Assembly (NCBI RefSeq): GCF_964213995.1
Contig: NW_027590197.1
Location: forward strand, 682,001 to 746,000
From: Mustelus asterias
Lineage: Eukaryota
Length of the DNA stretch: 64,000 nucleotides
Direction: 5' to 3'
A program made the translations under genes and the position numbers. Each line of letters starts with the position of its first letter. The first letter of the stretch is position 1. Below are positions 4,371 to 54,283 of this stretch, one piece after another. The notes under the pieces were generated by a model. It did not search any database. It worked only from the letters and a program-made list of their open reading frames with translations, and was not told where the DNA came from.

Positions 4371-5502
4371 TCAGACCTGGATATGATTAACAGCATCAAT
4401 AAGTGTAGAATCCAAACCTTGCAGTCCCTTGTGAACTCGCTGGTGTGTTAGCAGGTGGGATGACTGAATAAATCCCTTTCCACAGACATTACAGGTGAAC
4501 AGCCTCTCCCCAGTGTGAACTCGCTGGTGTTTCAGAAGATAAGAGAAATGAGAAAATCCCTTCCCACAGACAGAGCAGGTAAATGTGAATTTTCTGATGT
4601 GTCAGCAGGTTAGATGACTGACTGAATCCCTTCCCACACATGGAGCAGGTGAACGGCCTCTCCCCAGTGTGAACTCGCTGGTGATTCAATAGGTTGGATG
4701 AACGAGTGAATCGCTTCCCACACATGGAGCAAGTGAATGGCCTCTCCTCACTGTGAACCTGCTGGTGTGTCAGAAGGTTGTATGAACGGGTGAATCCCTT
4801 CCCACATTCAGAGCAGGTGAACGGTCGATCCCCGGTATGGAGCTGCTGGTGTATCAGAAGGTTGGATGAATTAATGAATCCCTTCCCACAGTCGGAGCAG
4901 GTGAAGGGCCTCTCCCCAGTGTGAATTCTCTGGTGGTTCAATGGGGCAGATGGGCGGCTGAATCCCTTCCCACACACACAGCAGGTGAATGGCCTCTCCC
5001 CAGTGTGAGTATATTGGTGCGTCAGCAGATCCTTTTTGTTTTTAAAGCCCTTCTCACAGTCAGAACAATTTAAAAGTTTGTTGTCAGAGTGAACAAGTTG
5101 ATGTGTCTGCAGGTGGGATGACTGAATGAATCCTTTCCCACACACAGAGCAGGTGAATGGTCTCTCCCCAGTGTGAATGCGTTGGTGTGTCAGCAGATCT
5201 TTTTTGCATTTAAAACTCTTCTCACAGTCAGAAGATGGAAACAGTCTCTCATCAGTGTGAACAAGTTGGTGTGTCACAATGTGGGATGAGCGAGTGAATC
5301 CCTTCCCACACACAGGGCAGGTGAACGGCCTCTTCCCAGTATGAACCCGTTGGTGAGTCAGAAGGTTCTGTGAATGGGTGAATCCCTTCCGACACTCGGA
5401 GCAGGTGAACGGTCTCTCCCCAGTGTGACTGCAATGAACTTCCAGTTGTGATGGGAAACCGAATCCTTTCCCGCACTCCACACATTTCCACGGTTTCTCC
5501 AT
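4371..5502 (-). pseudogene. C2H2 zinc-finger array, about 13 fingers, frameshifted paralog of 18338-19318
   Basis: MEKPWKC start and TGERP linkers; 3-bp loss in finger 1, Cys loss in finger 4, 14-bp deletion near 4585 relative to the paralog. Confidence 0.85.
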
Positions 5503-6439
5503 GGTGCGGGTGTCCTTGTGTTTCTCCAGGTTGGATGATCAGTTGAAACCTCGTCCACACACACAACATACATGTAGTTTCACTCTGCTGTGAACTGTGT
5601 GATGTTCTTTCAGACTGTGGACTGGTTAAAGCACTTTCCACAGTCAGTTCACTGGAACACTCCCAATCGGGTGTGTGTTTGTTCCAATGCTTTTCCGGTC
5701 ACACTGATGTTTAAAATCTTTGCTGACAGACAGAAGAGTCAAACATTTCTCCTCCCGCATTCAAAGACCAATGATCTTCAGCTCCAAATGAACAAAATGA
5801 CTTTGCCAGTCATGATGTTCGGTTTGAGTTTTCTGTCTACCAATCCTCCACTTCCAATATCCTGCAAAAAAAATTTGGAAAAGTCATCACTGTCAGTCCG
5901 GAATAGAAACTCTGAACAGACAATTCTAGTTTCTCCAGAACATTTTTTCCTCTCTTGTTCCCCAAAATCTGGAAATCCCCGTCCCACACACTCTCCCTCC
6001 TCCCTGGGCTTAAACCCATCTCACCATCTGCATCATTTCTTTCCTCCACTCCCAGTTTTCTCCCTCCCTCTCCTCTGTCTGGGTTCAGTTCTCCAGCTGC
6101 TGTCTGCAGACTGACAATAAAACCAATGGGTCTTACTGGGGGTGTTGGGGCCTCCAGCGGGTGTTTGTGAATCCTCCCCGCCCACCTCCCAGGGTTTCCT
6201 TCCTTCCCAGAGATCAGAGTCCTCATTGATTTGAGGCCAAAGTGTAACCTCTTATTTATTGTCCCCCTCCCCCATCCTCTGATGTGAACCATCCTCCAGT
6301 GGCTGAGCCAGGATGGGGCCGTTAACCTGGGCCTGTTCCCGGGAGGGAGGGAGGGAGAAGCCCCGCAGCTGCAAACCAGGGAGCTGACAATGATTCTGAA
6401 GGGTTTGCGGATCCACAAAGTGTTTCCAAATCCTCCCAG

Positions 6440-6860
6440 CCACCGCCTAACGCTGACTCCGCTTCTCCGGGACAAACAAGCGCCAAGGACAGCAATGACA
6501 CTGCGCATGCTCCACATCACAATGCCCGGGGACTGATTGACGGCAGCTCCGGACCAATAGGAAGAGGGGGCGGTGCTGGAGAACCGAGCGGGAGCGGCTG
6601 GTCCTCCAACCAATCGGAGTGAATGAGGGGCGGGGCTGGAGGACCTGAAGCATGCGCAGTGCGGGTAATGGCGACGGACAGAGGGACGGTTTTAACTTGG
6701 AAGCGAGATCAATACGAGGTAGAGGGCGGCGTGCGGGGAATGATAAATGTGGCGGGTGGGTGGAGAGATTTTGTAAACATATTGTTCAAACCCAAACCCC
6801 GGAAATGAACTTCCCGGTCCCCCGCTTTGTACCAAATGGAGCGGCAGCTTGTAGTGTTAG
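6440..6860. promoter_or_regulatory. CpG promoter module, putatively bidirectional
   Basis: Two GCGCATGC NRF1-like sites, two CCAAT boxes, GGGGCGGGG, dyad; lies upstream of the minus-strand ZNF. Confidence 0.7.
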
Positions 6861-6879
6861 ACCCGGGCTGACTGCCGCC

Positions 6880-7131
6880 TGTGATAAACCACTGTTAAGC
6901 TTATTGCCTGTGTGTGTGTGTGTGTGTGGCATGTCTGGGCATGCCCCTGCCAGCCCTGCATGAGACTCCTCCCCCCCCGTCCAGGTATGAAGGTGACTGC
7001 TCCCCACCCTCCTGCCTCAGTTGCTGGACCAGTTCATCAGCATGGGTGTGTGCTCCAAGTCTTTTGCGAATAAAAGCCTATTTGTTCTTGCATACAAACT
7101 AGTCTTTGCTTGATTGATAGATAGTGCATCA
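6880..7131 (+). mobile_element. Solo LTR
   Basis: TG...CA ends, internal AATAAA, 5-bp target-site duplication CCGCC (6875-6879 and 7132-7136). Confidence 0.8.
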
Positions 7132-7180
7132 CCGCCATTGAGGCTGCATGTGGGAGGCCGGCAGGGATTGTGATCGGGGA

Positions 7181-7376: not shown

Positions 7377-7399
7377 TCCAAATTCGCCCGACTTCGGTC

Positions 7400-10874: not shown

Positions 10875-11268
10875 GCTAAATGGAATGAGAGAGAGAGTGT
10901 ATGTGTGAGGGGCGTGGGTGGAGATTTAAAGAATGTTCCATAGAAACTACAATTGTCTGTTTTGAATTTCTATCATGTGCTGACAGTGATGATTTTTGTA
11001 AACTGCTTTCAGTGGATATTGGAAGGAGAGGTTTTGACTGGAAAAGCACGGAGATTCTCACACCCGTATCAGAGTGTTCCAGTGCACTGATTGTGGAGAG
11101 ACACAAGGACTCCGACACCATGGAGAAACCATGGAAATGTGGAGACTGTGGGAAGGGATTCAGAGCCCCATCTGGGGTGGAATCTCATCGACGCAGTCAC
11201 ACCGGGGAGAGACCGTTCATATGCTCCACTTGTGGGAAGGGATTCAATCATTCATCGAATCTGCTGAG
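10875..11268 (+). pseudogene. Truncated ZNF cassette (acceptor block plus 2 fingers)
   Basis: [28 protein letters not shown], then it breaks into (GA)n. Confidence 0.8.
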
Positions 11269-11314
11269 AGAGAGAGAGAGAGAAAGATTGAGAGAGAAAG
11301 AATCCAACCCCTGC

Positions 11315-11908
11315 AATCACTTGTGAACTTGTTGGTGTCGCTGCAGGTTGGATGACCGATTGAATCCATTTCCCACACACAGAGCAGGTGAACGGTCTGT
11401 CCCCAGTGTGAACTCGCTGGTGTCTCTGCCATGTGGATGACCTCCTAAACCTCTTTGTGCAGTGAGAGCAGCTAACCAGTCTCTCGTCAGTGTGAATGGG
11501 TTGGTGGACCATCAGTTCTCGAGAGCTTTTGAAGCCACTCCCACAGTCAGAGCATTTAAAGGGTCTGTCTTGGGTGTGAGTGACCTTGTGGCTCAACAGG
11601 TTGGGCAACTGAGTGAATCCCTTCCCACACACACAGCAGGTGAACGGTCTCTCCCCGGTGTGAATGCGCTGGTCGGTCAGCAGATTGTTTAACCGAGTGA
11701 ATCCTTTCCCACACACAGAGCAGGTGAATGGTCTCTCCCCAGTGTGAACTCCCTGGTGTGTTTGTAAATGGGATAACTGAGTGAATCTCTTCCCACACAC
11801 ACAGCAGGTGAATGGTCTCTCTCCAGTGTGACTGCGCCGATGAGTTTCCAGTGCAGATGGGAACCTGAATCCTTTCCCACAGTCCCCACATTTACACAAT
11901 TTCTCTAT
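11315..11908 (-). pseudogene. C2H2 ZNF array, about 7 fingers, start lost (ACCATA); acceptor at about 12250
   Basis: ORF 11252-11944 reads RTIEKLCKC where paralogs read RTMEKPWKC; last finger frameshifted. Confidence 0.75.
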
Positions 11909-13062
11909 GGTGCGGGTGTCCTTGTGACTCTCCAGGCTTGACAATTAGTTCAGTTACAACATAACATGGGTGCGGTCTCTCTGCTGCAATGTATTTTCAG
12001 GCTGTTTAACTGGTTAAAGTTCTTTCCACAGTCACTCAGGTGTGTGCATGTTTCAGTGTGTGTGTGTCTCGGTGCTTTTCCAGTTACACTGATGTTTAAA
12101 ATCTCCTGAAGCAGACAGAGCAGAGAAATATTTCCATTCTAGATTCAAAGGTTGATGATATTCAGGTCCCAATGAACTGAGTGACTATGTTAGATTTTGA
12201 TGTGAGGTTTGGTTTGATATTCGTCTTTAAATCTTCACCTTCTGATATCCTGCAAAAGGAATTTACAAACATCATCACTGTCAGCACAGGATAGAAATTC
12301 AGAACAGACAATTCTAATTTCCAATGAACATTCTTTCCTCTCTCATCCCCAAAGCTGTGAATCTCCATCCCACACACTCTCCCTCCATTCTCACTCTGCT
12401 GTATCTAATATTCACCCTCCCAATTCTCCTGAAGGTACTGATTGAGGCTGATTGACAGATCCATGCTCACTGCTTCCTGTCCACCACACACAAATCATAA
12501 GAAACAGGAGCTGCGGTTGGCCATTCAGCCCATCGAACTGCCTCAACCATTCATTGAGAATTGGCTGATCTACCGCAGCATCATTTCCCACGCTATCCCC
12601 CAGATAGAGAGAGAATAGAGCCAATGTTTCGAGTCTGGAGGGAGGAAAGAATGTTCCATAGAAATTAGAATTGTCTGTTCTGAATTTCTATCCTGCACTG
12701 ACACTGATGACCTCTGCAAACTTGTTTTACAGGAAATTGAAAGAGGAATCACAGACCGAAATCTCAGACGTTGTGTCTAGATCTGACAGAGTCATATTCC
12801 TCGGGACCTGAATATCATCGGCCTTTAAATCAAGGAGAAATGGTTGTCCGGTCTGGTGACTTGAAAAGATTTCAAACATCAGTGTGACTGGAAAAGTGCC
12901 AACACGCTGCAACACTGGAGTGAGTGTGTTCTAGTGCATTGACTCAAGAGCTTTAACCAGTTACACAGCAATAAATATCACACCATTCACAGCGGGGGTG
13001 GGGGGACTGTTCTGTGTGTGGACGAGTGTTCAACTGAAGAGAAAGGAAAGAACACCTGCACC

Positions 13063-14310
13063 ATGGAGAAACCATGGAAATGTGGGGACTGTGGGAAGAG
13101 ATACAGAGCCCCATCAGAGCTGGAAGATCATCGGCACAGCCACACTGGGGAGAGACCATTTACTTGCTCTCAGTGTGGGGAGGGATTCACTCGGGTATCC
13201 CAGCTGCAGAGACACCAGCGAGCTCACACTGGGGAGAGGCCCTTCACCTGCTCTCAGTGTGGGAAGGGATTCACTCGGTCATCCAGCCTGCAGGCACACC
13301 AGCGAGTTCACACTGGGGAGAGACCGTTCACCTGCTCTCAGTGTGAGAAGGGGTTCAGTCAATTGGCTAACCTGCAGAGACACCAGCGAGTTCACACTGG
13401 GGAGAGGCCGTTCACCTGCTCTCAGTGTGAGAAAGGGTTCAGTCATTTAGCTAACCTGCAGAGACACCAGCGAGTTCACACAGGGGAGAGACCTTTCACC
13501 TGCTTTCAGTGTGGGAAGGGATTCACTGATTTATCCACCCTGCGGAGACACCAGCGAGTTCACACTGGGGAGTGGCCGTTCACCTGCTCTATGTGTGGGA
13601 AGGGGTTCAGTCAATTAGCTGAGCTGCAGACGCACCAGCGAGTTCACACTGGGGAGAGACCATTCACCTGCTCTCAGTGTGAGAAGGGGTTCACTGATTT
13701 ATTCACCCTGCGGACTCACCAGCGAGTTCACACTGGGGAGTGGCCGTTCACCTGCTCTGAGTGTGAGAAGGGGTTCAGTCAATTATCTAACCTGCAGAAG
13801 CACCAGCGAGTTCACACTGGGGAGAGATCGTTCACCTGTTCTCATTGTGGGAAGGGATTCACTGATTTATCCACTCTGCGGAGACACCAGCGAGTTCACA
13901 CTGGGGAGTGGCCTTTCACCTGCTCTATGTGTGGGAAGGGGTTCAGTCAATTAGCTAAGCTGGAGACCCACCAGCGAATTCACACTGGGGAGAGACCGTT
14001 CACCTGCTCTCAGTGTGGGAAGGGATTCACTGATTTATTCACCCTGCGGACTCACCAGCGAGTTCACACTGGGGAGAGGCCGTTCACCTGCTCTCAGTGT
14101 GAGAAGGGGTTCAGTCAATTATCCAACCTGCAGAAGCACCAGCGAGTTCACACTGGGGAGAGACCGTTCACCTGCTCTCAGTGCGGGAAGGGGTTCAGTC
14201 AATTATCTAACCTGCAGACGCACCAGCGCCTTCATACTGGGGAGAGACCGTTCACCTGCTCTCAGTGTGGGAAGGGGTTCAGTCAATTATCCACCCTGCG
14301 GACACACTAG
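13063..14310 (+). CDS. C2H2 zinc-finger protein, 14 full fingers; premature TAG in finger 15, ancestral stop at 14409
   Basis: ACCATGGAG start at 13063; CAC TAG CGA where paralogous fingers have CAC CAG CGA; one more finger follows in frame; acceptor TTTTACAG ends at 12732. Confidence 0.8.
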
Positions 14311-14406
<96 letters not shown>

Positions 14407-16159
14407 TGATTCCAGGGGTTGGATTCTGCTGTTATTGTTTCTGCTCTCAATTACATCCAGGACTGCATTTTGTTCATTCTCACAGTTGGTCAATGGGGAG
14501 GGTCGGAGGGTTTCTTTCTGCTGGACTGGCCGGTCTCATGACTTTGCCTCCAGTGGGCTGATGCTCTTTGAGTCTTGTTGCGAATACCTGGTTTCAGATT
14601 TCACACGGATCACAGAGTGACAGGGTGTGAGGAAGTTAAGAGTTACTATTTCTGTTTGAAACTTCCCAAATGCTCATCCAATTTCCTTTGTAATTGTTTA
14701 CTGTCTCCACTTCCTCCACCCTCGTAGGCAGCGAGTTCCAGGTCATTACCATTCACTGCATCAAAATATTCTTCCTCACATCCCCCCTTCCTCTCTGACC
14801 CAAAACCATAAATCTGTGTCCCCCTCGTCCTTCTCTCGTCAGCTAATGGGAACAGCTTTTCTTTGTCCATCTTATCTAAACCTGTCAGAATCTTGTCCAC
14901 CTCTATCAAATCTACCCTCAACCTCCTTGCTCCAAGGGGAACAACCCTAGCCTGACATTGACAATAAAGAACAAACTAACAGAATATGTTAATACCTGAA
15001 ATCAAATGGGAATGTTTAATTTCTGTTTTAAAGAAATCATGAATATATTGTCCCGTACAATAAAGGGATTTGAATAACTCAGCTTGAGTGCAGTTGAATG
15101 AAATGTCTCAATCGCGTATCCACCCACAGTCGAGAGGAAGTGTGGAATGTGTAGCTGGAAATCCCTCCCTAACAGCACTGTGGGTGTACTTACACCTTCG
15201 GCATTATAGCAGTTCAGGAAGGCAGTGTTGGCGCTGATCGTGGCCGAGGCAGCTACATACAGCCACATATTCTGTTATAACTGAAGGACTGCAGATTAAA
15301 TGTGCGGCATTATGGGACTGGACTATCTTGACCACATTCCTGTGACTGCTCAGTTTCTGCAATCATGAACCATTAAAGCTGCTTAGCAGGGTCCTGACAG
15401 AGGACCTGGTGAGAATATTTACTCAGAATGAGTGAGAATGAAACTTATTCCAGGACCGGCTGGTGTTCAGTGGCTGAGATTCCCGAATCTGTAAAAAGGG
15501 GGTCTGACCAGTGGTAGGTAGTCCGGTAAGAAGCGTTCTCATGCATTATTTAAATTATTTTATCATGAAGTTGTGATCAGAACTGTGAGGGACTTGTAAC
15601 CCAATAGTTGTTGAATTGACGGTAAACTCCAAGTAGCACTGGACTGAAAAGGGGGTCTGACCAAGAAGTGAAGTGATCTCAGGCATTGTTTAAATTACAT
15701 CATCATTGGCCAACTTCCCCTTTGTGATGTCACAATGGAGTCCTGCCTGAATCAGCCAATAGGAATCACTCTGCTCCGCGGTGACGTCTCTGGGTTCCAG
15801 TGCTCAGGCCCGGGCGCACAGACCTGGGAGCCCCGCCCCCACCCATTGTTCCCCTCCCCCTACACCACATCGAGCCAAGGTTTCCAGGCAACCGGCTGGC
15901 GGCTCCGGCCAGAGCGAGAAGCTGCTCGGTGATCTCCCCCTCCCCCCGGCCCGGGACTGCGCATGTCCAAGGGAGGGGGAAGCTGCGAATTGCAGGGCAG
16001 ATCCTGCCCCCTGACCTTCTGAGGTGTTGATTAATAGGAAGAGTTGGAGGACCGGAAGGACTCTGGTCCTCCAGCTGATCAGAGCGCGGGCTTTGCGTGA
16101 ATGAAGATTGAGCTTCAGACAGACTGAAACTTCCTCCTGTCTCCAACATCAGAGAGGTT

Positions 16160-16232
16160 GTTTCTGTAGTGAAGTGGTTGTCACGTTTGCCTGACACGCG
16201 AAAGGTCCCCGGGTCAGAACCGGGCAGGAATG
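16160..16232 (+). tRNA. tRNA-Val-derived gene with GAC anticodon, probably a pseudogene
   Basis: GTTTCTGTAGTGAAGTGGTTGTCACGTTTGCCTGACACGCGAAAGGTCCCCGGGTCAGAACCGGGCAGGAAT follows vertebrate tRNA-Val; stems can pair, but the T-loop/B-box is altered. Confidence 0.8.
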
Positions 16233-16239
16233 TTAATTT

Positions 16240-17089
16240 GTTAATTCCAGCATCAAAGTGGGAAGGGGGAGGAAGGTGAGCTGTTGCCTGCCTGCCTGCT
16301 GTCGTCTGGCCTGCCTGCCTGTCGTCTGGCCTGCCTGCCGTCTGGCCTGCCTGTCTTCCGTCCGTCCGCCCACTGGAGGGTGCTCTCTCCCTGGAGGGAG
16401 AGAGGACACGGAGTGACTTTCTTTCTTTTTTCTTTCTATCTATGGGAGGGAGGACTGCACGTTTCAACATCGAGGGACTGAGTGGTTGGGCTGGTGCCCT
16501 CATCATCAGAAGGTCGGTGCCTGAAAGGGATGGGGGGGTGAAGTAAATTCAGACTGTTTTTTCCATCTGGGGGGGGGGGGCGGTGAAGACACCCCGGACT
16601 TGAACTGTTTGCGCCCAAAAGGGCTGGAGGAGTAAAGACCCCCACCCACTGCTGCTGCCCCCAACACCGGCGCCCCCAACACCGGCACCCCCTCCCCTCT
16701 TTCCCCCTGACTGGGGCACCGGCCCCCCTCCGTGCCTTGTCCCTCGTCCTCCCTCCTGCTCCTCCGACCTCCTCTCTCGCTCCGGGGAGAGAGCACCTAG
16801 ATCCCCATCCACCTACCCTACCCTCCCTTATTTTTCCCTCCTCTTATACGCCCTGCCGTGGCAGAGCCTTCTCGGCCCACCTATGCGGGCGTGGCGGCTG
16901 CCAGAGCCCCCGCCGCTCCCAAGGCCCTGCCACCTTTTTCGTTGCTCACGCGGCAGCTCGGGGTTAAGTGCTACGCCCACCCCGACATGTCCATCGAGGC
17001 CTGTGTCAAGGCAATGGCTGGGGTTGTCGGCCCCTCAGCCATTGTCGCGGCCTCTAAGATGTACGGCCGGGCCGTATTCTTTTTGAAGG
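16240..17089 (+). mobile_element. 5' end of a Tx1-clade LINE (putative 5'UTR plus ORF1 N-terminus)
   Basis: PPFSLLTRQLGVKC..SIEACVKAMAGVVGPSAIVAASKMYGRAVFFLK resembles the Tx1 ORF1 N-terminus; cut off at the duplication breakpoint; the 5' boundary is approximate. Confidence 0.7.
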
Positions 17090-17410
17090 CCACCCACCCG
17101 CCACATTTATCATTCCCCGCGCGCCGCCCTCTACCTTGTATTGTTCTCGCTTCCAAGTTGAAACCGTCCGTCCGCCGCCGCCATTACCCGCACTGCGCAT
17201 GCTTCAGGTCCCGCCCCTCATTCACTCCGATTGGTTGGAGGACCAGCCGCTCCCGCTCGGTCCTCCAGTCCCGCCCCCTCTTCCTATTGGTCCGGAGCTG
17301 GCGTCAATCAGCTCCCGGGCATTGTGATGTGGAGCATGCGCAGTGTCATTGCTGGCCTTGGCGCTTGTTTGTCCCGGAGGAGCGGAGTCAGCGTTAGGCG
17401 GTGGCTGGGA
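17090..17410. promoter_or_regulatory. CpG promoter module
   Basis: Same NRF1-like, CCAAT, GC-box and dyad layout as 6440-6760, inverted. Confidence 0.7.
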
Positions 17411-18337
17411 GGATTTGGAAACACTTTGTGGATCCGCAAACCCTTCAGAATCATTGTCAGCTCCCTGGTTTGCAGCTGCGGGGCTTCTCCCTCCCTCCCT
17501 CCCGGGAACAGGCCCAGGTTAACGGCCCCATCCTGGCTCAGCCACTGGAGGATGGTTCACATCAGAGGATGGGGGAGGGGGACAATAAATAAGAGGTTAC
17601 ACTTTGGCCTCAAATCAATGAGGACTCTGATCTCTGGGAAGGAAGGAAACCCTGGGAGGTGGGCGGGAAGGATTCACAAACACCCGCTGGAGGCCCCAAC
17701 ATCCCCAATAAGACCCATTGGTTTTATTGTCAGTCTGCAGACAGGAGCTGGAGAACTGAACCCAGACAGAGGAGAGGGAGGGAGAAAACTGGGAGTGGAG
17801 GAAAGAAATGGTGAGATGGGTTTGGATTTCAGCCCAGGGAGGAGGGAGAGTGTGTGGGACGGAGATTTACAGATTTGGGGGAACAAGAGAGGAAAAAATG
17901 TTCCAGACGAACTAGAATTGTCTGTTCAGAGTTTCTATCGTGTTCTGACAGTGATGACTTTTCTAAACTGTTTTTACAGGATATTGGAAGTGAAAGATTG
18001 GCAGACAGAAAATTCAAACCGGACATCACATCTGACAAAGTCATTCAGTTCCTTCGGAGCTGAATATCATTGGTCTTTGAATATAGAAAGAGAAATATTT
18101 GTCTGTTCTGCCTGTGGGCAAAGAAATTAAACATCAGTGTGACCGGAAAAGCATCGAGACAAACACACACCCGAGTGAGAGTGTTCCAGTGAACTGAATG
18201 TGGAAAGAGCTTTAACCAGTTACACAGCCTGAAAAAACATCACAGTTCACAGCAGGGTGAAACTACGTGTATGTTGTGTGTGTGGATGAGGCTTGAACTG
18301 ATCATCCAACCTGGAGAAACACAAGGACACCCGCACC

Positions 18338-19318
18338 ATGGAGAAACCGTGGAAATGTGTGGATTGTGGGAAGGGATTCGGTTTCCCATCACAACTGGAA
18401 GTTCATCGGCGCAGTCACACTGGGGAGAGACCGTTCACCTGCTCCGTCTGTGGGAAGGGATTCACCCATTCATACAAACTTCTGACTCACCAACGGGTTC
18501 ACACTGGGGAGAGGCCGTTCACCTGCCCTGTGTGTGGGAAGGGATTCACTCGCTCATCCCACATTGTGACACACCAACTTGTTCACACTGATGAGAGAAT
18601 GTTTACATGTTCTGACTGTGAGAAGAGTTTTAAATGCAAAAAGGATCTGCTGACACACCAACGAATTCACACTGGGGAGAGACCGTTCACCTGCTCTGTG
18701 TGTGGGAAAGGATTCATTCAGTCATCCCACTTGCAGACACATCAACTTGTTCACTCTGATAACAAACTTTTTAATTGTTCCCACTGTGAGAAAAGCTTTA
18801 AAAATAAAAAGGATCTGCTAACGCACCAATATGCTCACACTGGGGAGAGGCCATTCACCTGCTGTGTGTGTGGGAAGGGATTCAGCCGTCCATCTGCCCT
18901 ATTGAACCACCAGAGAATTCACACTGGGGAGAGGCCCTTCACCTGCTCAGACTGTGGGAAGGGATTCACTTGTTCATCCAACTTATTGAATCACCAGCGA
19001 GTTCACACTGGGGAGAGGCCGTTCACCTGCTCTGTGTGTGGGAAGGGATTCAGTCAGTCATCCAACCTGCTGACACACCAGAAAGTTCACAGTGCGGAGA
19101 GGCCATTTACCTGCTCTGTCTGTGGGAAGGGATTTTCTCATTTATCTTATCTTCTGAAACACCAGCGAGTTCACACTGGGGAGAGGCCGTTCACCTGTAA
19201 TGTCTGTGGAAAGGGATTTATTCAGTCATCCCACCTGCTAACACACCAGCGAGTTCACAAACGACTGCAAGGTTTGGATTCTACTCTTAATGATGCTGTT
19301 AATCATATCCAGGACTGA
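18338..19318 (+). CDS. Intact C2H2 zinc-finger protein, 11 fingers, no effector domain seen
   Basis: 326-aa ORF, ACCATGG start, CxxC..HxxxH repeats; acceptor TTTTTACAG ends at 17979. Confidence 0.9.
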
Positions 19319-20249
19319 ATCGTGTTCACTCTGACAGTCTTCATCCGTTGAGGTTTAATATTCTGAATAAATATGAAATAGACCAGCTTTGTTTTTTAAA
19401 ATTGTTGTCGATTTTTGTCTTCCCCACCTGACCCCACATCACCAGGCTGGAGCTCAGAAAGGACAATCGGGGGAGGATCATATGGCAAACAGGACGCAGT
19501 CCTTCAGGGTCACAGAGAGGGACAAACAGCACTTTGCTCTTCCTCATCTCTCTTCACGACAGCAAAGTACCCGTGTGGTTTAATCCTGAGATGTGCAAGA
19601 ACCTCAGTCGCTCCCTTCTATGTTTCAGCGCTCCTAGACCAGGAACAGAAGTTCCTTTACAACTGTGTTTAGAGTCAGGAAGAACAACAGTGAATGCTGG
19701 TAGGATGCTGCTAAATCAGAGATTGGTGCAAAACTCGGATCTGTTCCTGACTGAGAGTGAAACGGCAGGATTAGATTTCCAGACTGAAAATGCAGAAAAG
19801 TCTAAAATATTTTAATGTGTTTGTGTCAGTGCCAGTTTATTGAACAGAAACCAGTTTAAAATAAATTGGTTAAAGTCTGCATTAAAGTAGCAGCTGGAGA
19901 GTTCAAAGGAACCTGTTATCTGCTGGGACAATTAGACAACAATTTGATTCCCAGATAAAAAGGAGCTACAGCGTGTCCAAGAATTCCCAGTTTTATTGAT
20001 GTGGCTTCCCACACACTGTCCTTTTAAATAAACCTCACTCCTATCAACCTTTAACCATTATAAACAGAATAGAGAGAAGAGTGAAGCTGTGCCTGTCCCT
20101 TTAACTGGAAACTGAACAGCATCAAGCCCCAACTGTCCCTTTAAGAATGAATGATGTGTTCAGCTGAAGATTCCTATTGGTAGTTTTCTGGGTGATCTCC
20201 TTATTTTGGATTATTCTCAGTGATCCTCAGTTGTGTGAACCTCTTCTCA

Positions 20250-32733: not shown

Positions 32734-33657
32734 ATGTCAGTGCAGGCAGTGCAATGTTCCTCCTGTGGGATGTGTGAGGTGAGGGACACCATTAGTGTCC
32801 CAGCTGAGTACACCTGCAGGAAGTGCACCCAATTCCAGCTCCTTGAAGACCATGTTAGGGATCTGGAGTTGGAACTGGATGAACTCAGGATCATTCGGGA
32901 GGCAGAGACAGTTATAGATAAAAGCTACAGGGAGGTTCATACTCCTAGGAATGAGGATACTTGGGTGACTGTTAGAAAGGGTAAGAAGCAGACAGTGCAG
33001 CGATCCCCTGTGGCCGTTCCTCTGTATAACAAGTATACCGTTTTGGATACTGTTGGGGAGGGCAACTTACCAGGGGTAAGCCATGGGGTACAGATCTCTG
33101 GCACAGAGTCTGTCCCTGTTGCTCAGAAGGGAAAGGGGGGGAGGAGTAGAGCATTAGTCATTGGGAACTGCATAGTTAGGGGGACAGATCGGAGATTCTG
33201 TGAGAGCGAGAGGGACTCGCGGCTGGTGTGTTGCCTCCCAGGTACCAGGGTCTTTGATGTCTCGGATCGTGTTTTCAAGATCCTTAAGGGGGAAGGGGAC
33301 CAGCCCCAAGTTGTGGTCCACACAGGCACCAATGACATAGGTAGGAAAAGAGATGGGGATATAAGGCAGAAATTCAGGGAGTTAGGGTGGAAGCTTAGAG
33401 CGAGAACAAATAGAGTTGTTATCTCTGGTTTGTTACCCGTGCCACGTGCTAGTGAGGAGAGGAATAGGGAGAGAGAGCAGTTGAACACGTGGCTACAGGA
33501 ATGGTGCAGGAGGGAAGGATTTAGATACCTGGATAATTGGCGCTCATTCTGGGGTAGGTGGGACCTCTACAAACGGGATGGTCTTCACCTGGACCAGAGG
33601 GGTACTAATATCCTGGGGGGGAAATTTGCTAATGCTCTTCGGGAGGGTTTAAACTAA
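32734..33657 (+). CDS. CR1 ORF1p: zinc finger/leucine zipper plus SGNH esterase-like domain
   Basis: CSSC..CRKC, heptad leucines, HTGTND, DGLHL; the GDS motif reads GNC. Confidence 0.85.
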   Translation: MSVQAVQCSSCGMCEVRDTISVPAEYTCRKCTQFQLLEDHVRDLELELDELRIIREAETVIDKSYREVHTPRNEDTWVTVRKGKKQTVQRSPVAVPLYNKYTVLDTVGEGNLPGVSHGVQISGTESVPVAQKGKGGRSRALVIGNCIVRGTDRRFCESERDSRLVCCLPGTRVFDVSDRVFKILKGEGDQPQVVVHTGTNDIGRKRDGDIRQKFRELGWKLRARTNRVVISGLLPVPRASEERNREREQLNTWLQEWCRREGFRYLDNWRSFWGRWDLYKRDGLHLDQRGTNILGGKFANALREGLN

Positions 33658-34534
33658 TTCGGCAGGGGGGTGGGAACCTGGATTTCTGCTCCAGTGTACA
33701 GGAGGATGTGAGTGGTGAGGTGATGAATAAGATTTCAAGGTCGCAGGAGTGTACCGGCAGGCAGGAAGGTGCTTTGAAGTGTGTCTACTTCAATGCCAGG
33801 AGCATCCGGAATAACGTGGGTGAACTTGCAGCATGGGCTGGTACCTGGGACTTCGATGTTGTGGCCATTTCGGGGACATGGATAGAGCAGGGACAGGAAT
33901 GGTTGTTGCAGGTTCCGGGGTTTAGATGTTTCAGTAAGATCAGGGAAGGTGGTAAAAGAGGAGGAGGTGCGGCATTGTTAGTCAAGGACAGTATTACGGT
34001 GGCAGAAAGGATGTTAATGAGGACTCGTCTACTGAGGTAGTATGGGCTGAGGTTAGAAACAGGAAAGGAGAGGTCACCCTGATGGGAGTTTTCTATAGGT
34101 CTCCGAAAAGTTCCAGAGATGTAGAGGAAAAGATTGCAAAGATGATTCTGGATAGGAGCGAAAGTAACAGGGCAGTTGTTATGGGGGACTTTAACTTTAC
34201 AAATATTGACTGGAAATGCTATAGTTCGAGTACTTTAGATGGGTCAGTTTTTGTCCAATGTGTGCAGGAGGGTTTGCTGACACAGTATGTAGATAGACCA
34301 ACAAGAGGCGAGGCCACATTGGATTTGGTACTGGGTAATGAACCAGGCCAGGTGTTAGATTTGGAGGTAGGTGAACACTTTGGTGATAGTGACCACAATT
34401 CGGTTACGTTTACTTTAGCAATGGAAAGGGATAGGTATACACCGCAGGGCAAGTATTATAGCTGGGGGAAAGGAAATTATGATGCGATTAGGCGAGATTT
34501 AGGATGCACAGGATGGGGAAGAAATCTGTAGGGG

Positions 34535-36481
34535 ATGGGCACAATTGAAATGTGGAGCTTGTTCAATGAACAGCTACTGCGTGTCCTTGATAAGTATGTA
34601 CCTGTCAGGCAAGGAGGTAGTGGTCGAGCGGGGGAACCGTGGTTTACTAAAGAAGTTGAATCTCTTGTGAAGAGGAAGAAGGAGACTTATGTAAAGATGA
34701 GACGTGAAGGCTCAGTAAGGGCGCTTGAGAGTTACAAGTTCGCCAGGAAGGAGCTGAAGAGAGAGCGAAGAAGAGCCAGGAGGGGACATGAGAAGTCTTT
34801 GGCAGGTAGGATCAAGGAAAATCCTAACGCTTTCTACAGGTATGTCAGGAATAAAAGAATGACTAGGGTAAGATTAGGGCCAGTCAAGGACAGTAGTGGG
34901 AAGTTGTGCGTGGAGTCTGAAGAGATAGGAGAGGCGCTAAATGAATATTTTTCGTCAGTATTCACACAGGAAAAAGACAATGTTGTCGAAGAGAATACTG
35001 AGATACAGGCTATTGGACTAGACGGGATTGAGGTTCATAAGGAGGAGGTGTTAGCAATTCTGGAAAGTGTGAAAATAGATAAGTCCCCTGGGCCGGATGG
35101 GATTTATCCTAGCATTCGCTGGGAAGCTAGGGAGGAGATTGCAGAGCCTTTGGCTTTGATTTTTATGTCATTGTCTACAGGAATAGTGCCAGAAGACTGG
35201 AGAATAGCAAATGTTGTCCCCTTGTTCAAGAAGGGGAGTAGAGACAACCCTGGTAATTATAGACTGGTGAGCCTTACTTCTGTTGTGGGCAAAGTTTTGG
35301 AAAGGATTAGAAGAGATAGGATTTATAATCATCTCGAAATTAATAATTTGATTAGGGATAGTCAGCACGGTTTTGTGAAGGGAAGGTCGTGCTTCACAAA
35401 CCTTATTGAGTTCTTTGGGAAGGTGACCAAAGAGGTGGATGAGGGTAAAGCAGTTGATGTGGTGTTTATGGATTTAAGTAAAGCATTTGATAAAGTTCCC
35501 CACTTTAGGCTATTGCAGAAAATACAGAGGCATGGGATTGAGGGTGATTTTGAGATTTGGATCAGAAATTGGCGAGCTGTAAGAAGACAGAGGGTGGTGG
35601 TTGATGGGAAATGTTCATCCTGGAGTTCAGTTACTAGTGTACCGCAAGGATCTGTTTTGGGGCCACTTTTGTTTGTCATTTTTATAAATGGTCTGGATGA
35701 GGGCGTAGAAGGATGGGTTAGTAAATTTGCGGATGACACTAAAGTCGGTGGAGTTGAGGACAGTGTGGAAGGATGTTGCAGGTTACAGAGGGACATAGAT
35801 AAGCTGCAGTGCTGGGCTGAGAGGTGGCAAATGGAGTTTGATGTGGAAAAGTGTGAGGTGATTCACTTTGGAAGGAGTAACAGGAATACAGAGTACTGGG
35901 CTAATGGTAAGATACTTGGTAGTGTGGATGAGCAGAGAGATCTCGATGTCCATGTGCATAGATCCCTGAAAGTTGGCACCCAGATTGATAGGGTTGCTAA
36001 GAAGGCGTACAGTGTGTTAGCTTTTATTAGAAGAGGGATTGAGTTTCGGAGCCATGCTGTCATGTTGCAGCTGTACAAAACTCTGGTGCGGCCGCACTTG
36101 GACTATTGCGTACAGTTCTGGTCGCCGCATTATAGGAAGGATGTGGAAGCATTGGAAAGGGTGCAGAGGAGATTTACCAGGATGTTGCCTGGTATGGTGG
36201 GAAGGTCTTATGAGGAAAGGCTGAGTGACTTGAGGCTTTTTTCGTTGGAGAGAAGAAGTTTAAGAGGTGACTTAATAGAGGCATTCAAGATGATCAGAGG
36301 ATTAGATAAGTTGGACAGTGTAAGCCTTTTTCCTCGGATGATGATGGCTAGCACGAGGGGGCATAGCTTTAAATTGAGGGGTGATAGATATAGATCAGAT
36401 GTCAGAGGTAGGTTCTTTACTCAGAGAGTAGTAAGGGTGTGGAATGCCCTGCCTGCAACAGTAGTGGACTCGTCAACATGA
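34535..36481 (+). CDS. CR1 ORF2 reverse transcriptase portion
   Basis: [31 protein letters not shown]. Confidence 0.85.
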   Translation: MGTIEMWSLFNEQLLRVLDKYVPVRQGGSGRAGEPWFTKEVESLVKRKKETYVKMRREGSVRALESYKFARKELKRERRRARRGHEKSLAGRIKENPNAFYRYVRNKRMTRVRLGPVKDSSGKLCVESEEIGEALNEYFSSVFTQEKDNVVEENTEIQAIGLDGIEVHKEEVLAILESVKIDKSPGPDGIYPSIRWEAREEIAEPLALIFMSLSTGIVPEDWRIANVVPLFKKGSRDNPGNYRLVSLTSVVGKVLERIRRDRIYNHLEINNLIRDSQHGFVKGRSCFTNLIEFFGKVTKEVDEGKAVDVVFMDLSKAFDKVPHFRLLQKIQRHGIEGDFEIWIRNWRAVRRQRVVVDGKCSSWSSVTSVPQGSVLGPLLFVIFINGLDEGVEGWVSKFADDTKVGGVEDSVEGCCRLQRDIDKLQCWAERWQMEFDVEKCEVIHFGRSNRNTEYWANGKILGSVDEQRDLDVHVHRSLKVGTQIDRVAKKAYSVLAFIRRGIEFRSHAVMLQLYKTLVRPHLDYCVQFWSPHYRKDVEALERVQRRFTRMLPGMVGRSYEERLSDLRLFSLERRSLRGDLIEAFKMIRGLDKLDSVSLFPRMMMASTRGHSFKLRGDRYRSDVRGRFFTQRVVRVWNALPATVVDSST

Positions 36482-40690: not shown

Positions 40691-41701
40691 ATGGAGAAAC
40701 CATGGAAATGTGCGGACTGTGCGAAGAGATACAGATACCCAAATGAGCTGGAAGCTCATCGGCGCAACCACATTGGGGAGAGGCCATTCACCTGCTCTCA
40801 GTGTGGGAAGGGATTCACTCGGTTATCCATCCTGCAGTCACACCAGCGAGTTCACACTGGGGAGAGACCGTTCACCTGCTCTCAGTGTGGGAAGGGATTC
40901 ACTCAGTTATCCACCCTGCAGAAACACCAGCGAGTTCACACTGGGGAGAGGCCATTCACCTGCTCTCAGTGTGGGAAGGGATTCACTCGGTTATCCATCC
41001 TGCAGTCACACCAGCGAGTTCACACTGGGGAGAGGCCGTTCACCTGCTCTCAGTGTGGGAAGGGATTCTGTGATCCATCCAGCCTGCGGATACACCAGCG
41101 GGTTCACACTGGGGAGAGGCCATTCACCTGCTCTCAGTGTGAGAAGGGATTCTGTAATCCATCCAGCCTGCTGAGACACCAGCGAGTTCACACTGGGGAG
41201 AGGCCGTTCACCTGCTCTCAGTGTGGGAAGGGATTCTATGATTCATCCAGCCTGCGGATACACCAGCGGGTTCACACTGGGGAGAGGCCATTCACCTGCT
41301 CTCAGTGTGGGAAGGGATTCACTTGGTCAAACCAGCTGCAGAGACACCAGCGAGTTCACACTGGGGAGAGGCCATTCACCTGCTCTCAGTGTGGGAAGGA
41401 ATTCACTCGGTCATCCCAGCTGCAGAGACACCATGAAGTTCACACTGGGGAGAGGCCATTCACCTGCTCTCAGTGTGGGGAGGGATTCACTCAGTCATCC
41501 CACCTGCTGAGACACCAGCGAATTCACACTGGGGAGAGGCCGTTCACCTGCTCTCAGTGTGAGAAGGGATTCACTCGATTATCCAGCCTGCGGATACACC
41601 AGCGAGTTCACACTGGGGAGAGGCCATTCACCTGCTCTCAGTGTGGGAAGGGATTCAGTCTTTCATCCCAGCTGCTGAGACACCAACGAGTTCACGAGTG
41701 A
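40691..41701 (+). CDS. Intact C2H2 zinc-finger protein, 12 fingers
   Basis: ACCATGGAG at 40691; [10 protein letters not shown] repeats; acceptor ends at 40339. Confidence 0.9.
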
Positions 41702-41792: not shown

Positions 41793-42199
41793 GATGCTCT
41801 GATTGTGGGAAGGGATTCACTGATTCATCCGACCTGTTGAAACACCAGAGAATTCATAATAGGGAGAGGCCATTTATCTGCTCCGAGTGTGGGAAGGGAT
41901 TTACTCAGTCATTCAACCTGCTAAAACACCAGCCAAGTCACACTGGAGAGAGGCCATTCACTTGCTCCAGTTGTGGGAAGGGATTTATTGATTCATCCAG
42001 TCTGCGGAGGCACCAGCGAGTTCACACCAGGGAGAGACCATTCACCTCCTCTGATTGTGGCAAGGGATTCAGTCAATCATCCAACCTGGTAAAGCACCAG
42101 CGAATTCACACTGGGGACAGGCCATTCACCTGCTCCGTGTGTGGGAAGGGATTCACTCAATCACCTCACCTGCTGAAACACCATCATGTTCACGAGTGA
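41793..42199 (+). pseudogene. Headless 5-finger ZNF fragment joined into the 3' flank of the preceding gene
   Basis: ORF 41711-42199; the junction falls where paralogs continue GGGTCGGAGGG. Confidence 0.75.
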
Positions 42200-44124: not shown

Positions 44125-44216
44125 GGTGTGGTGAAAGCTTCAACCAATCATCTGGCCTTTTGGAACATAATTGCAGTCACAGGGAGATGCCATGGAAATG
44201 TGGGGATTGTGGGAAG
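44125..44216 (+). pseudogene. ZNF remnant cut by a CR1 insertion
   Basis: [30 protein letters not shown], then a CR1 tail. Confidence 0.6.
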
Positions 44217-49625: not shown

Positions 49626-50547
49626 TCACTTGTGAACTTGTTGATGTCTCAGGAGCCATTGTGACTGAGTGAATCCCTTCCCACACACAGAGTAGTTGAA
49701 TGGCCTCTTAGTGTGAGTGCGTTGGTGAGCCAGCAGGTTGAAAGACTGCGAATCCTTTCCCACACACGGAGCAAGTGAATGGCCTCTCCCCTGTGTCAAC
49801 TCGCTGGTGAGCAGAGAGGTTGGATGGCCGATTGAATCCCTTCCCACACACTGAGCATGTGAATGGTCTTTCTGCAGTGTGAGTGCGTCGGTGAGCAGTG
49901 AGGTTGGATGACTGCCTGAAATTCTTTCCACAGTCAGTGCAGCTGAATGGCTTCTCTTCAGTGTGAATTTTCTGGTGTCTCAGCAGGGTGGGTAAAACTG
50001 TGAATCCCTTTCCACACACAAAGCAAGTAAACGGTCTCTCCCCAGTGTGAATTCGCTGGTGTGCAACGAGGGAGGATGCCTGTCTGAAACTCCGTCCACA
50101 GTCAGTGCAGCTGAATGGCTTCTCCTCAATGTGAACTCGCTGATGTGACAGTAAGTGGGATGACCCAGTGAATCCCTTCCCACAGTCGGAGCAGGTGAAC
50201 GGCCTCTCCCCAGTATGAACTCGCTGGTGTGACAGCAGGTGGAATGACTGAGTGAATCCCTTCCCACACACGGAGCAGATGAATGGTCTCTCCCCGGTGT
50301 GAGTGCGTTGGTGCACAGTGAGTGCTGAAGAATGCCTGAATCTCTTCCCACAGGAGGTGCAGGTGAATGGCTTTTCCTCAGTGTGAATTCTCTGGTGAGA
50401 CCAAAGGCCCGATGACTGAATGAATCCCTCCCCACAGACAGAACAGGTGAACGGTCTCTCACCAGTGTGACTGCGCCGATGGTTTTCCAGCAGGGAAGGG
50501 AAACTGAATCCTTTCCCACAGTCCCCACATTTCCACGGTTTCTCCAT
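49626..50547 (-). pseudogene. C2H2 ZNF array, about 11 fingers; first 8 intact, frameshift in finger 10
   Basis: ORF 49708-50547 MEKPWKC..; the tail continues in the 49626 frame; acceptor at about 50880. Confidence 0.75.
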
Positions 50548-51105
50548 GGTGCTGGTGTCCTGATGTTTCTCCAGGTTAAACGATCAGTTGAAGCCTCATC
50601 CACACACAGAACACGTGTATAGTTTCTCCTTGCTGTGAATGGTGTGATGTTTTTTCAGGCTGTGTAACTGGATAAAGCTCTTTCCACAGTCAACTCACTG
50701 AAACACTCTCACTCGGGTGTGCGTGTAACTTGGTGCTTTTTCAGTCACACTGATGTTTGAAATCTTCTCCTCCAGACAGAAGACAAACATTTCTCCTTCC
50801 ACATTCAAAGTCTGAGGATATTTAAGTCCAAGTGAATTGAGACTCTGTCTGATTTTGATGTGATGTTTCTTCACCTCACCTGTAAAAGGAGTTTACAAAA
50901 TTAATCACTGTCAGTCCAGGATAGAAATTTTGAACAGGCAATTCTAATTCTCTGGAACATTTCTTCCTCTCTTGTTCCCCAAATCAATAAATTCCTGTCC
51001 CACAAACTCTCCCTCCTCCCTGGGCTGAAATCCAAACCCACCTCACAATTTCTTTTCTCCACTCCCAGTTTGCTCCCTCCCTCTCCTCTGTCTGGGTTCA
51101 GTTCT

Positions 51106-51271
51106 GATGTGGAGATGCCGGCGTTGGACTGGGGTGAACACAGTAAGAGTTTTAACAACACCAGGTTAAAGGCCAACAGGTTTATTTGGTAGCAAACACC
51201 TAATGGTAGCTAATGGTGTTTGCTACCAAATAAACCTGTTGGACTTTAACCTGGTGTTGTTAAAACTCTTA
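51106..51271. mobile_element. Palindromic Penelope pLTR fragment
   Basis: Inverted copies of AACACCAGGTTAAAG..TTTATTTGGTAGCAAA; TSD CTGGGTTCAGTTCT. Confidence 0.8.
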
Positions 51272-51619
51272 CTGGGTTCAGTTCTCCAGCTGCTGTCTGC
51301 AGACTGACAATAAAACCAATGGGTCTGATTGGAGGTGTTGGGGCCTCCAGCGGGTGTTTGTGAATCCTCCCCGCCCACCTCCCAGGGTTTCCTTCCTTCC
51401 CAGAGATCAGAGTCCTCATTGATTTGAGGTCAAAGTGTAACCTCTTATTTATTGTCCCCCTCCCCCATCCTCTGATGTGAACCATCCTCCAGTGGCTGAG
51501 CCAGGATGGGGCCGTTAACCTGGGCCTGTTCCCGGGAGGGAGAAGCCCCGCAGCTGCAAACCAGGGAGCTGACAATGATTCTGAAGGGTTTGCGGATCCA
51601 CAAAGTGTTTCCAAATCCT

Positions 51620-51985
51620 CCCAGCCACCGCCTAACGCTGACTCCGCTTCTCCGGGACAAACAAGCGCCAAGGACAGCAATGACACTGCGCATGCTCCAC
51701 ATCACAATGCCCGGGCACTGATTGACGGCAGCTCCGGACCAATAGGAAGAGGGGGTGGGGCTGGAAGACCGAGCGGGAGCGGCTGGTCCTCCAACCAATC
51801 GGAATGAATGAGGGGCGGGACCTGAAGCATGCGCAGTGCGGGTGAACCAGATAAACCTGTTGGACTTTAACCTGGTGTTGTTTGACTTGTTGCTGTGTTT
51901 ACCCCAGTCCAAAGCCGGCATCTCCACATCAGTGCGGGTAATGGCGACGGACGGCCGGTTTTAGTTTGGAAGCGAGATCAATGAA
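51620..51985. promoter_or_regulatory. CpG promoter module between divergent ZNF genes; small Penelope insert at 51844-51929
   Basis: Near-identical to 6440-6715; insert TSD CAGTGCGGGT. Confidence 0.7.
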
Positions 51986-51999
51986 GGGAAAGGAATGAC

Positions 52000-52515
52000 T
52001 GGCAAATGGGAGGTTTTAAAAGTGTGATATCAAGAGACCAGGGTCAGTATATTCCTGTTAAGATGCAGGGAAATAATGGTAAATTTAGGGATCTCTGGCA
52101 GACAAGGGACATTGAGGCTCTGGTCAGGTAAAAGAAGGAAGCATACATTGGGTTTAGGCAATCGGGGACAAGTGAATCACTCTGACTATAAAAAGTGTAA
52201 GAAAATACTGAAGAGGGAAATCAGGAGGACAAAAAGAGGGTATGATATGGATCTGGCAGGTAAGATTAAAGAAAATTCCAAGAGGTTCTATGGCTATATT
52301 AAGAGTAAAAGGGTGGCTAGAGAGAGAATAGATCCCCTTAAAAATCAGTATGGCCATCTGTGTGTGGAGCCACAGGAGATGGGTGAGATTTTTAATGAAT
52401 ACTTCTCCTCTGTGTTTACTGCGGAGAGCACCATGGGTGCGAAAGAAATAAGGGAAACAAGTGGTGATGTCTTGGGCACACGCATGTTACTTGGGAGGAG
52501 GTATCTGCAGCCTTA
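52000..52515 (+). mobile_element. Degenerate CR1 ORF2 middle fragment
   Basis: KIKENSKRFYGYIKSKR..EIFNEYFSSVFT. Confidence 0.7.
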
Positions 52516-53188
52516 TAAAAGCAAATTACTGCGGATGCTGGAATCTGAAACCAAGAGAGAAAATGCTGGAAAATCTCAGCAGGTCTGGCAGCATCTGTAA
52601 GGAGAGAAAAGAGCTGATGTTTCTTGTCTCGATGACCCTTTGTCAAAGCTCTGAAACATCAGTTCTTTTCTCTCCATACAGATGCTGCCAGACCTGCTGA
52701 GAATGGGGAGAGAGTGTGTGGAATGGAGATTTACAGCTTCTGGGGAATGAGAGAGGAAAGAATGTTCCATAGAAATTGTCTGTTCTGAATTTCTATCCTG
52801 TACTGACACTGATGACTTTTGGAAACTCATTTTACAGGATATTGAAAGAGGAATCACAGGCTGAAATCTCAAACGTCACGTCTCGATCTGACAGAGTCTT
52901 ATTCCTTGGGACCTCAATATCATCGGCCTTTGAATCTTGAAGGAGAAATGATTGTCCAGTCTGTCGATTTGAAAAGATTTGAAATGTCAGTGTGAGTGAA
53001 AAAGCATCAACACACTGCCACACTTGAGAGAGAGTGTTCCAATGCACTGACTAAAGAGCTTTAACCAGTTACACAGTCTGAATAAATATCACACCATTCA
53101 CAGCGGGTAGAGACTGTAATCTTGTTCTGTGTGGGGACGAAGTTTCAACTAATTGTCCACCCAAGAGAGAGGTAAGGACACCCGCACC

Positions 53189-54283
53189 ATGGAGAAACCG
53201 TGGAAATGTGCAGACTGTGGGAAAAGATACAGAGCCCCATCTCTGCTGGAAGCTCATCGGCGCAGCCACACTGGGGAGAGACCATTCACCTGCTCTCAGT
53301 GTGAGAAGGGATTCATTCAGTTATCCAGCCTGCGGACACACGAGCGAGTTCACACTGGGGAGAGGCCATTCACCTGCTCTGAATGTGGGAAGGGATTCAC
53401 GCAGTCATCCCACCTGCAGACACACCAGCGAGTTCACACTGGGGTGAGGCCATTCACTTGCTCTCAGTGTGGGAAGGGATTCATTCAGTTATCTACCCTG
53501 CGGACACACGAGCGAGTTCACACTGGGGAGAGGCCATTCACCTGCTCTCAGTGTGGGGAGGGATTCACTTGTTCATCCAACCTGCAGACACACGAGCGAG
53601 TTCACACTGGGGAGAGGCCGTTCACCTGCTCTCAGTGTGGGGAGGGATTCACTTGTTTATCCACCCTGCGGACACACCAGCGAGTTCACACTGGGGAAAG
53701 GCCCTTCACCTGCTCTCAGTGTGGGAAGGGATTCACTCAGTTATCCAATTTGCGGGCTCACCAGCGACTTCACACAGGGGAGAGGCCATTCACCTGCTCT
53801 CAGTGTGGAAAGGGATTCACCCAGTCATCCGAGCTGTGGGCACACCAGCGAGTTCACACTGGGGAGAGGCCCTTCACCTGCTCTCAGTGTGGGAAGGGAT
53901 TCACTCAGTCATCCAACCTGCAGACACACCAGCGAGTTCACACTGGGGAGAAACCATTCACCTGCTCTCAGTGTGGGAAGGGATTCACTCAGTTATCCCA
54001 CCTGCAGGCACACCAGCAAGTTCACACTGGGGAGAGACCATTCACCTGCTCTCAGTGTGGGAAGGGATTCACTCAGTTATCCCACCTGCAGAGACACCAG
54101 CAAGTTCACACTGGGGAGAGGCCATTCACCTGCTCTCAGTGTGGGAAGGGATTCACTCGGTTATTCCACCTGCAGGCACACCAGCGAGTTCACACTGGGG
54201 AGAGGCCGTTCACCGGCTCTCAGTGTGGGAAGGGATTCAGAGTTTCATCCCGGCTGCTGAGACATCAGCAAGTTCATGAGTGA
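53189..54283 (+). CDS. Intact C2H2 zinc-finger protein, 13 fingers (the last lacks a Cys)
   Basis: ACCATGGAG at 53189; acceptor ends at 52837; paralog of the 13063 and 40691 genes. Confidence 0.9.

Follow-up and report, generated by a model that had tools for sequence, protein, structure and literature searches.

What a cluster of zinc finger genes with no recognizable effector domain is for, and how it grows, bears on the sequence-specific silencing of new elements in the transposon-rich genomes of cartilaginous fish. The question is raised here by a 64,000-nucleotide stretch of the shark Mustelus asterias (assembly GCF_964213995.1, contig NW_027590197.1, positions 682,001 to 746,000 of the forward strand), hereafter the window. 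An earlier note on this DNA described tandem C2H2 zinc finger (ZNF) genes as effector-less cassettes with a conserved chassis and hypervariable finger arrays. We find that the window is one copy of a block duplicated about 17 times, and that the amplifying unit is a multi-gene segmental duplication of 40-50 kb, not a single-gene cassette. Our analysis supports an elasmobranch birth-and-death family of thousands of loci that would encode fingers only, as had been proposed, with purifying selection and no match to an effector.

A six-frame scan of positions 4371-54283 recovered the eight tandem C2H2 arrays of the earlier description (A1 to A8; Table 1), in which TGEKP-linked fingers follow one another within one exon. 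Its outline of these genes also held: there are 7-16 fingers per array, the recognition residues differ between arrays, the 3′ ends are related in sequence and every array has an MEK-type start, reading ATA in A2 and MEKL in A5. The frames are open in A4, A6 and A8 and carry lesions in A1, A2, A3, A5 and A7 (5/8, against about half as claimed), and the A3 and A7 lesions are not present in most sibling copies. With the arrays masked, some 400-500 bases 5′ of the start are common to all eight at 66-92% identity.

The unit of duplication is visible from collinear copies elsewhere in the assembly. Contig C105 is collinear with window positions 365-51105 (up to 51 kb), C71 with 7549-44924, C87 with 914-44109, and C118 carries two tandem copies 74.7 kb apart, matching 7549-51105 and 7549-56332. 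These copies are 95-99.6% identical to the window, with 1.1-2.4% substitutions, and were copied at the DNA level together with introns, inserted long interspersed elements (LINEs) and dead genes. Copies were counted by sequence matches in assembled contigs, with 40 matches scored per marker. An interior block marker was at least 99% identical in 17/40 scored matches, on 11 contigs, and 16 more fell at 88-90%; these identity classes point to a young wave of duplication on top of an older one. For a 601-base non-coding stretch 5′ of A4, all 40 scored matches lay at 98-100%, on 27 contigs. Thirty A4 copies gave 29 distinct sequences with a median divergence of 0.9%, and block copies sharing one contig differ by private insertions and deletions; for both reasons we take the A4 copies to be paralogues rather than two haplotypes. 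Close copies of the block are confined to C71 and unplaced contigs.

Two other modes of spread were considered and rejected. The variable, multi-gene ends of the copies argue against a transposon-like mobile single-gene cassette, terminal repeats and target duplications not having been separately searched, and the duplication of introns and flanks argues against retroposition. The block is also not static: most other copies examined have one more ZNF gene, in a segment of about 3.4 kb that is deleted from the window copy at position 29209. Adjoining this deletion is a 36-bp satellite (59 copies, 29296-31401) that other block copies carry at different lengths. A nearly full-length LINE at 32716-36481 (+), which we take to be a CR1 element, travels in the block copies with a GDSL-type first open reading frame (ORF1), a reverse transcriptase and a few stops.

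Genome-wide copy number, which the earlier note had suggested counting, was gauged with a 23-base start motif. It occurs exactly 2,457 times, with none for the reversed control; by listing order, 74 occurrences are on C1-C70 and 2,383/2,457 on C71 and the unplaced contigs. The 116 starts (66 exact) found in 887,552 sampled bases, one per 7.7 kb, extrapolate to roughly 4,300 loci, a figure from a redundant sample picked around block copies. Smaller clusters of the same family lie on large scaffolds (C12, 54.3-55.1 Mb; C16, 92.7-93.0 Mb; C23, 3.3-4.7 and 11.1-12.4 Mb). Relatives sharing finger 1, under automatic names, come from sawshark, horn shark, sevengill, basking shark, catshark, bamboo shark, skate and stingray.

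The arrays themselves evolve in two regimes. A3, A6 and A8 form a fast class with minisatellite-like turnover of whole fingers. They have a common leader type and 3′ end, and DNA identity among their fingers is 85-89%. The ratio of nonsynonymous divergence at contact positions -1, 3 and 6 to synonymous divergence (dN/dS) between their fingers is 2.4, 12.3 and 3.5, respectively, with framework dN/dS of 0.28-0.64; these ratios come from non-independent pairs and are raised artificially by gene conversion, as has been cautioned for PRDM9 too (PMC5519329). In this class, 38-44% of amino-acid heterozygosity falls at positions -1, 2, 3 and 6. Twelve normally ending A3 copies whose leaders are at least 98.5% alike contain 8 to 17 fingers in 5 lengths and 9 fingerprints, and 29 A8-like copies contain 17 fingerprints. 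A1, A4 and A7 form a stable class, with finger identity of 69-73% and, in 25/30 A4 and 19/30 A7 copies, one length and near-constant fingerprints. Thus the hypervariability once ascribed to all arrays applies to A3, A6 and A8 and fails for A1/A4 and A7. The predicted excess of change at contact residues is likewise present between fingers of A3, A6 and A8, and absent from A1/A4 and from the youngest copies.

Selection among the youngest copies was assessed position by position in the 75/150 copies collinear with the majority form. At non-contact codons dN was 0.020 against a dS of 0.053 (p 9e-8), and dN/dS was 0.23-0.35 in the A3, A7 and A8 copy sets. Selection is purifying overall, and no current arms race by point mutation is seen. 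Since contacts show no short-run excess, new specificity would come first from whole-finger turnover and chimeras. Such chimeras exist: in L087 a fast-class 3′ end follows the promoter and initial fingers of A7, a copy on C143 matches A3 at 88% in the leader and 97% in the 3′ untranslated region (UTR), and L134 departs from A3 inside the array. Sorting by 3′ UTR, from which these chimeras were not called, is confounded, as the fast-class UTRs are nearly identical and many loci too short. New arrays arise when whole fingers are gained, lost or exchanged and when recombination inside arrays links the 5′ half of one gene with the 3′ half of another.

We then asked whether an effector could be hidden 5′ of the fingers. 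The shared intron-end block and leader of the earlier note were borne out, with mean identities over 20 non-redundant genes of 84% and 78-79%, respectively. The leader had been misread, being in fact the remains of coding sequence: translated across frameshifts, it is a spacer of about 45 residues followed by three dead fingers, whose stops fall at common positions. Coding constraint on it is ruled out by flat codon periodicity (0.86/0.83/0.84). The last leader finger is intact, with its own ATG, in relatives P0037, P0135 and P0160 and at 3/116 local starts, which indicates that an old finger linker gave rise to the MEK start. An ACCATGG context surrounds 83/116 sampled starts. In all eight genes the frame is closed by a stop 12 codons 5′ of the start (40 codons in A3, with no ATG), so splicing of an upstream exon to the known acceptor could not bring in a domain. 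The earlier note named three findings that would overturn its description, and none of our results does so outright; the first of them, an effector in upstream exons, is opposed by this closed frame.

Domain searches agreed. Hidden Markov models (HMMs) gave 0 KRAB and 0 SCAN matches across 987,552 bases of the cluster, translated in six frames into 31,344 peptides, and the controls recovered held-out domains in 3/3 (KRAB) and 7/7 (SCAN) cases. The absence of KRAB and SCAN noted earlier therefore stands; for BTB, phmmer was blank on the same peptides in a run made without a control. A genome-wide Pfam search for KRAB gave 0 matches with its positive control silent too. A Pfam scan of the eight upstream frames returned no significant family, PR/SET included, and an upstream coding exon for a FiNZ-type domain found no open acceptor-to-start frame in the eight genes, no FiNZ model having been searched.

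The dead-finger leader has other features. An inverted repeat at about 18132-18196 and equivalent positions is paired in 211/234 cells over 20 genes, with arms conserved at 92% vs 86% and one compensatory change. A leader RNA structure was not accepted, as the consensus fold of 20 leaders reached at most -1.4 kcal/mol with that single compensatory change. In A4, an out-of-frame ATG opens a frame that crosses the MEK start (about 18271-18591, +) and may dampen translation.

Promoter sequence is less uniform than had been thought. A type A module lies directly 5′ of A1, A4 and A7 only (3/8 arrays), not of all eight as claimed, and a promoter-like type B module also exists; in a sibling copy, type B stands 5′ of A8, within 2.4 kb missing from the window copy. 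The A7 promoter (51266-51843) is 96% identical to that of A4 (17186-17771) and the leaders of the two are only 80% alike, which argues for promoter exchange or conversion between their subfamilies. Two gene pairs are head to head, A2/A3 (11908-13063) and A7/A8 (50547-53189); the A2 and A3 intron-end blocks are separated by no more than a few hundred bases, which contain no promoter module. Inside the block, a tRNA-Val(GAC) gene (16159-16233, +) sits between the type B module and a retrotransposon fragment 5′ of A4, presumably of the Tx1 group.

Evidence on transcription, whose absence would also have spoken against the family, comes from a single splice joint. In contigs assembled from two runs of a single sample, whose kind is unrecorded, position 16510 is joined to 17978 by a GT..AG splice, at 85% likeness and with 30 letters on the short side. 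The donor sits in the 5′ retrotransposon fragment and the joined frame ends at a stop at 18128, before the fingers. The joint lends weak support to the acceptor and to transcription. For 17200-19400 itself no RNA record is listed, which speaks neither for nor against expression.

The most constrained part of the protein is finger 1. The earlier note called it atypical, yet it is a canonical C2H2 finger, and with three dead fingers preceding it, it was not originally first. The special constraint suspected there is nonetheless present: among 24 non-redundant intact genes, the D between the cysteines is kept in 23/24, P+1 in 24/24, E+5 in 24/24 and R at His+2 in 23/24, all non-contact residues. 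The same four positions have heterozygosities of 0.48-0.74 in fingers 2-3, which are not orthologous across genes and so give a weaker contrast. By comparison, positions -1, +3 and +6 of finger 1 are as variable as those of fingers 2-3 (0.77-0.79), and synonymous divergence is similar for fingers 1, 2 and 3 (0.35, 0.33 and 0.37). The motif was also seen in shark records (sawshark, horn shark, sevengill, basking shark, catshark and bamboo shark) and in skate, and P0037, P0135 and P0160 retain its residues downstream of another, intact finger. The constraint thus persists behind a preceding finger, so N-terminal position does not explain it. The fixed positions lie off the base-reading face, which fits a candidate protein-binding surface. 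Zinc fingers mediate protein contacts in PRDM9 and ZNF133 (PMC5705219). Atlas and PDB searches with finger 1 returned generic C2H2 proteins only.

Table 1. Features of the window, in window coordinates.
Feature	Position	Strand	Array start	Remarks
A1, older paralogue of A4 (91%), 13-finger type	4371-5502	-	5502	finger 1 minus one codon; frameshift near 4585
Core of duplicated multi-gene block	7549-51105	.		A2-A7 and intervening LINE and short interspersed element (SINE) pieces; ends vary by copy (365 to 56332)
A2, about 7 fingers	11252-11908	-	11908	ATA instead of ATG; frameshift in last finger
A3, 16 fingers, minisatellite-like	13063-14406	+	13063	stop in finger 15 here; most siblings open
Type B promoter-like module	15703-16156	+		homologous to regions 5′ of other ZNF genes; putative promoter
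Non-long-terminal-repeat (non-LTR) retrotransposon 5′ fragment, ORF1 start	16380-17088	+		relatives carry zinc knuckle; splice donor near 16512
Type A promoter module, CpG island	17090-17771	+		upstream of A4
Intron-end block, acceptor (17979/17980), leader	17880-18337	+		equivalent block before each array
A4, intact, 326 amino acids (aa), 11 fingers, stable class	18338-19318	+	18338	copies at ≥98%: at least 40
Finger 1, WKCxDC..PS.LE.HRRSH	18338-18418	+		D, P+1, E+5, R fixed family-wide; -1, +3, +6 variable
A5	27022-27689	+	27022	finger 1 broken; three more fingers, then frameshift
A6, intact, 12 fingers, minisatellite-like	40691-41701	+	40691	headless array next, 41795-42199
A7, 11-finger stable class	49630-50547	-	50547	frameshift near end here; 307 aa in 19/30 copies
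A8, open, 364 aa, minisatellite-like	53189-54283	+	53189	12 canonical fingers and one without first Cys
Other type A modules	6073-6763; 51266-51843	-		fragments at 85-242 and 28753-29209
Extra pieces beyond the eight arrays	11120; 41795-42199; 44181; 63680-64000			missed by the earlier note; 63680-64000 is an intron-end block

The explanation we favour, tentatively and at slightly less than an even chance, is that a block of finger-only genes multiplies by segmental duplication, introns and LINEs included, that the DNA specificity of its arrays would be renewed by finger turnover and inter-array recombination, that the proteins would target the DNA of fast-changing repeats, transposons among them, and that the conserved surface of finger 1 would stand in for a KRAB domain by recruiting a partner. 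Its parts are not equally secure. The block duplication, the closed leader, the finger turnover and the chimeras are shown. The proteins very probably bind DNA, and transposons may be their targets, with repression the outcome, though this is close to balanced and leans toward doubt; recruitment through finger 1, suggested by its conservation, is more doubtful still. Besides the limits given above on the within-array ratios, the contrast with fingers 2-3 and the splice joint, several observations weigh against this explanation. Contact dN/dS in A1, A4 and A7 is 0.7, 0.75 and 1.5, and in A3 the proportion of synonymous differences (pS) at contact codons is raised too, at 0.57 vs 0.20. In the youngest copies contact dN (0.030) is below dS (0.053, p 0.04), contact codons show no excess over non-contact codons (p 0.14), and the A4 and A6 sets look neutral, with dN about equal to dS. 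By a strict rule, only 44/116 sampled starts are intact, and the conservation of finger 1 could be structural.

This last point leads to the view that the proteins are bare DNA binders acting by steric blocking or competition, with finger 1 kept in order to fold and to cap an array that has no upstream neighbour. P+1, E+5 and R+8/+9 suit helix capping and salt bridges in C2H2 fingers generally, the contact residues of finger 1 vary like those of other fingers, and no effector was matched; but the retention of the finger 1 residues behind an intact finger, noted above, speaks against it, and we regard it as rather unlikely. Less likely again is that expansion is mostly drift, with arrays and LINEs promoting unequal exchange, genes hitch-hiking and most copies having no specific role. 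The 72/116 starts that are not intact, the dead genes and LINE pieces copied along, the neutral look of the youngest A4 and A6 copies and the junctions inside arrays are what drift would produce, whereas the low dN/dS of the A3, A7 and A8 copy sets, the contact excess in the fast class and a finger 1 motif conserved from sharks to skates are not.

A short effector of the FiNZ or HP1 type could instead be added by an upstream exon whose splice skips the dead leader. Short motifs escape Pfam and HMMs, FiNZ itself being 28 aa and unlike known domains (PMC10547256). A single automatic skate gene model, P0010, has an open spacer and, 5′ of its fingers, a PRVVL motif, which we assume to be of the PxVxL type, and 3/116 starts have an intact extra finger with ATG. 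Given the stops above the start in all eight window genes, the mutually unrelated N-termini of the relatives' models and the P0008 and P0136 models that begin at MEK, we consider this very improbable. The least probable alternative, to which we give almost no credence, is that false duplication accounts for much of the high copy number: most copies are on small unplaced contigs and, in a few pairs, only 0-2 substitutions separate 2.5 kb, but the 30 A4 copies comprise 29 distinct versions and several copies with private insertions and deletions share one contig. Returning to the favoured explanation, should finger 1 recruit a corepressor, an effector would have evolved inside a DNA-binding fold; if it does not, the family keeps its interest as a vertebrate ZNF expansion of very large size and as a model of how arrays evolve. 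In either case, fast and stable classes side by side, together with a constrained 27-residue module, make a directly testable system.

Comparable systems are known in other vertebrates. Like the young KRAB-ZFP clusters of mouse Chr4, the shark genes spread in large multi-gene segmental duplications (PMC12575710, PMC5363842) and combine shared and divergent fingerprints, intra-array duplication of finger blocks and many pseudogenes. Unlike them, the shark family lacks a KRAB exon, is far larger by its exact start motifs, and has junctions inside finger arrays that are not tied to endogenous retroviruses (ERVs). The FiNZ-ZNFs of cyprinids on zebrafish Chr4q are, as here, a lineage-specific tandem-finger family in one region (PMC10547256, PMC11603059), but in their 684 members a separate exon encodes an N-terminal domain (PMC10547256), whereas the shark frame is closed 5′ of the first finger. 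The fast class resembles the PRDM9 array in its finger-to-finger identity of 85-89%, whole-finger turnover and diversity at contacts (PMC5519329). It differs in belonging to a multi-copy family without KRAB, SSXRD or SET, and its share of heterozygosity at contacts is below most complete PRDM9 values (0.46-1.0), which may use a different set of sites (PMC5519329).

Among elasmobranchs, records P0008, P0013, P0015, P0037, P0135 and P0136 have the same finger and array type under the automatic names zinc finger protein 239-like, ZFP2-like, gastrula zinc finger-like and uncharacterized, and no KRAB, SCAN or BTB family is listed for these RefSeq/UniRef entries. Catshark has recent zinc-finger duplicate clusters on chromosomes 13 and 17, mentioned in passing (PMC11979771), and KRAB-domain families are depleted in cartilaginous fish according to work on the whale shark (PMC8455134). 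We found no study dedicated to the shark family; term searches of the text available from 10.1101/2025.06.08.657570 and PMC13047888 gave no description of it, and the ZNF-count supplements of PMC10547256 and the cluster lists of 10.1101/2025.06.08.657570 may cover it. By comparison with these systems, the family appears to work as KRAB and FiNZ clusters do while being a member of neither, the defining domains being absent. It is conceivable, if unlikely, that elasmobranchs have independently built a third form of transposon surveillance, in which some 4,000 ZNF genes would use finger 1 as their effector and combine PRDM9-like shuffling with inter-array recombination in amplifying blocks.

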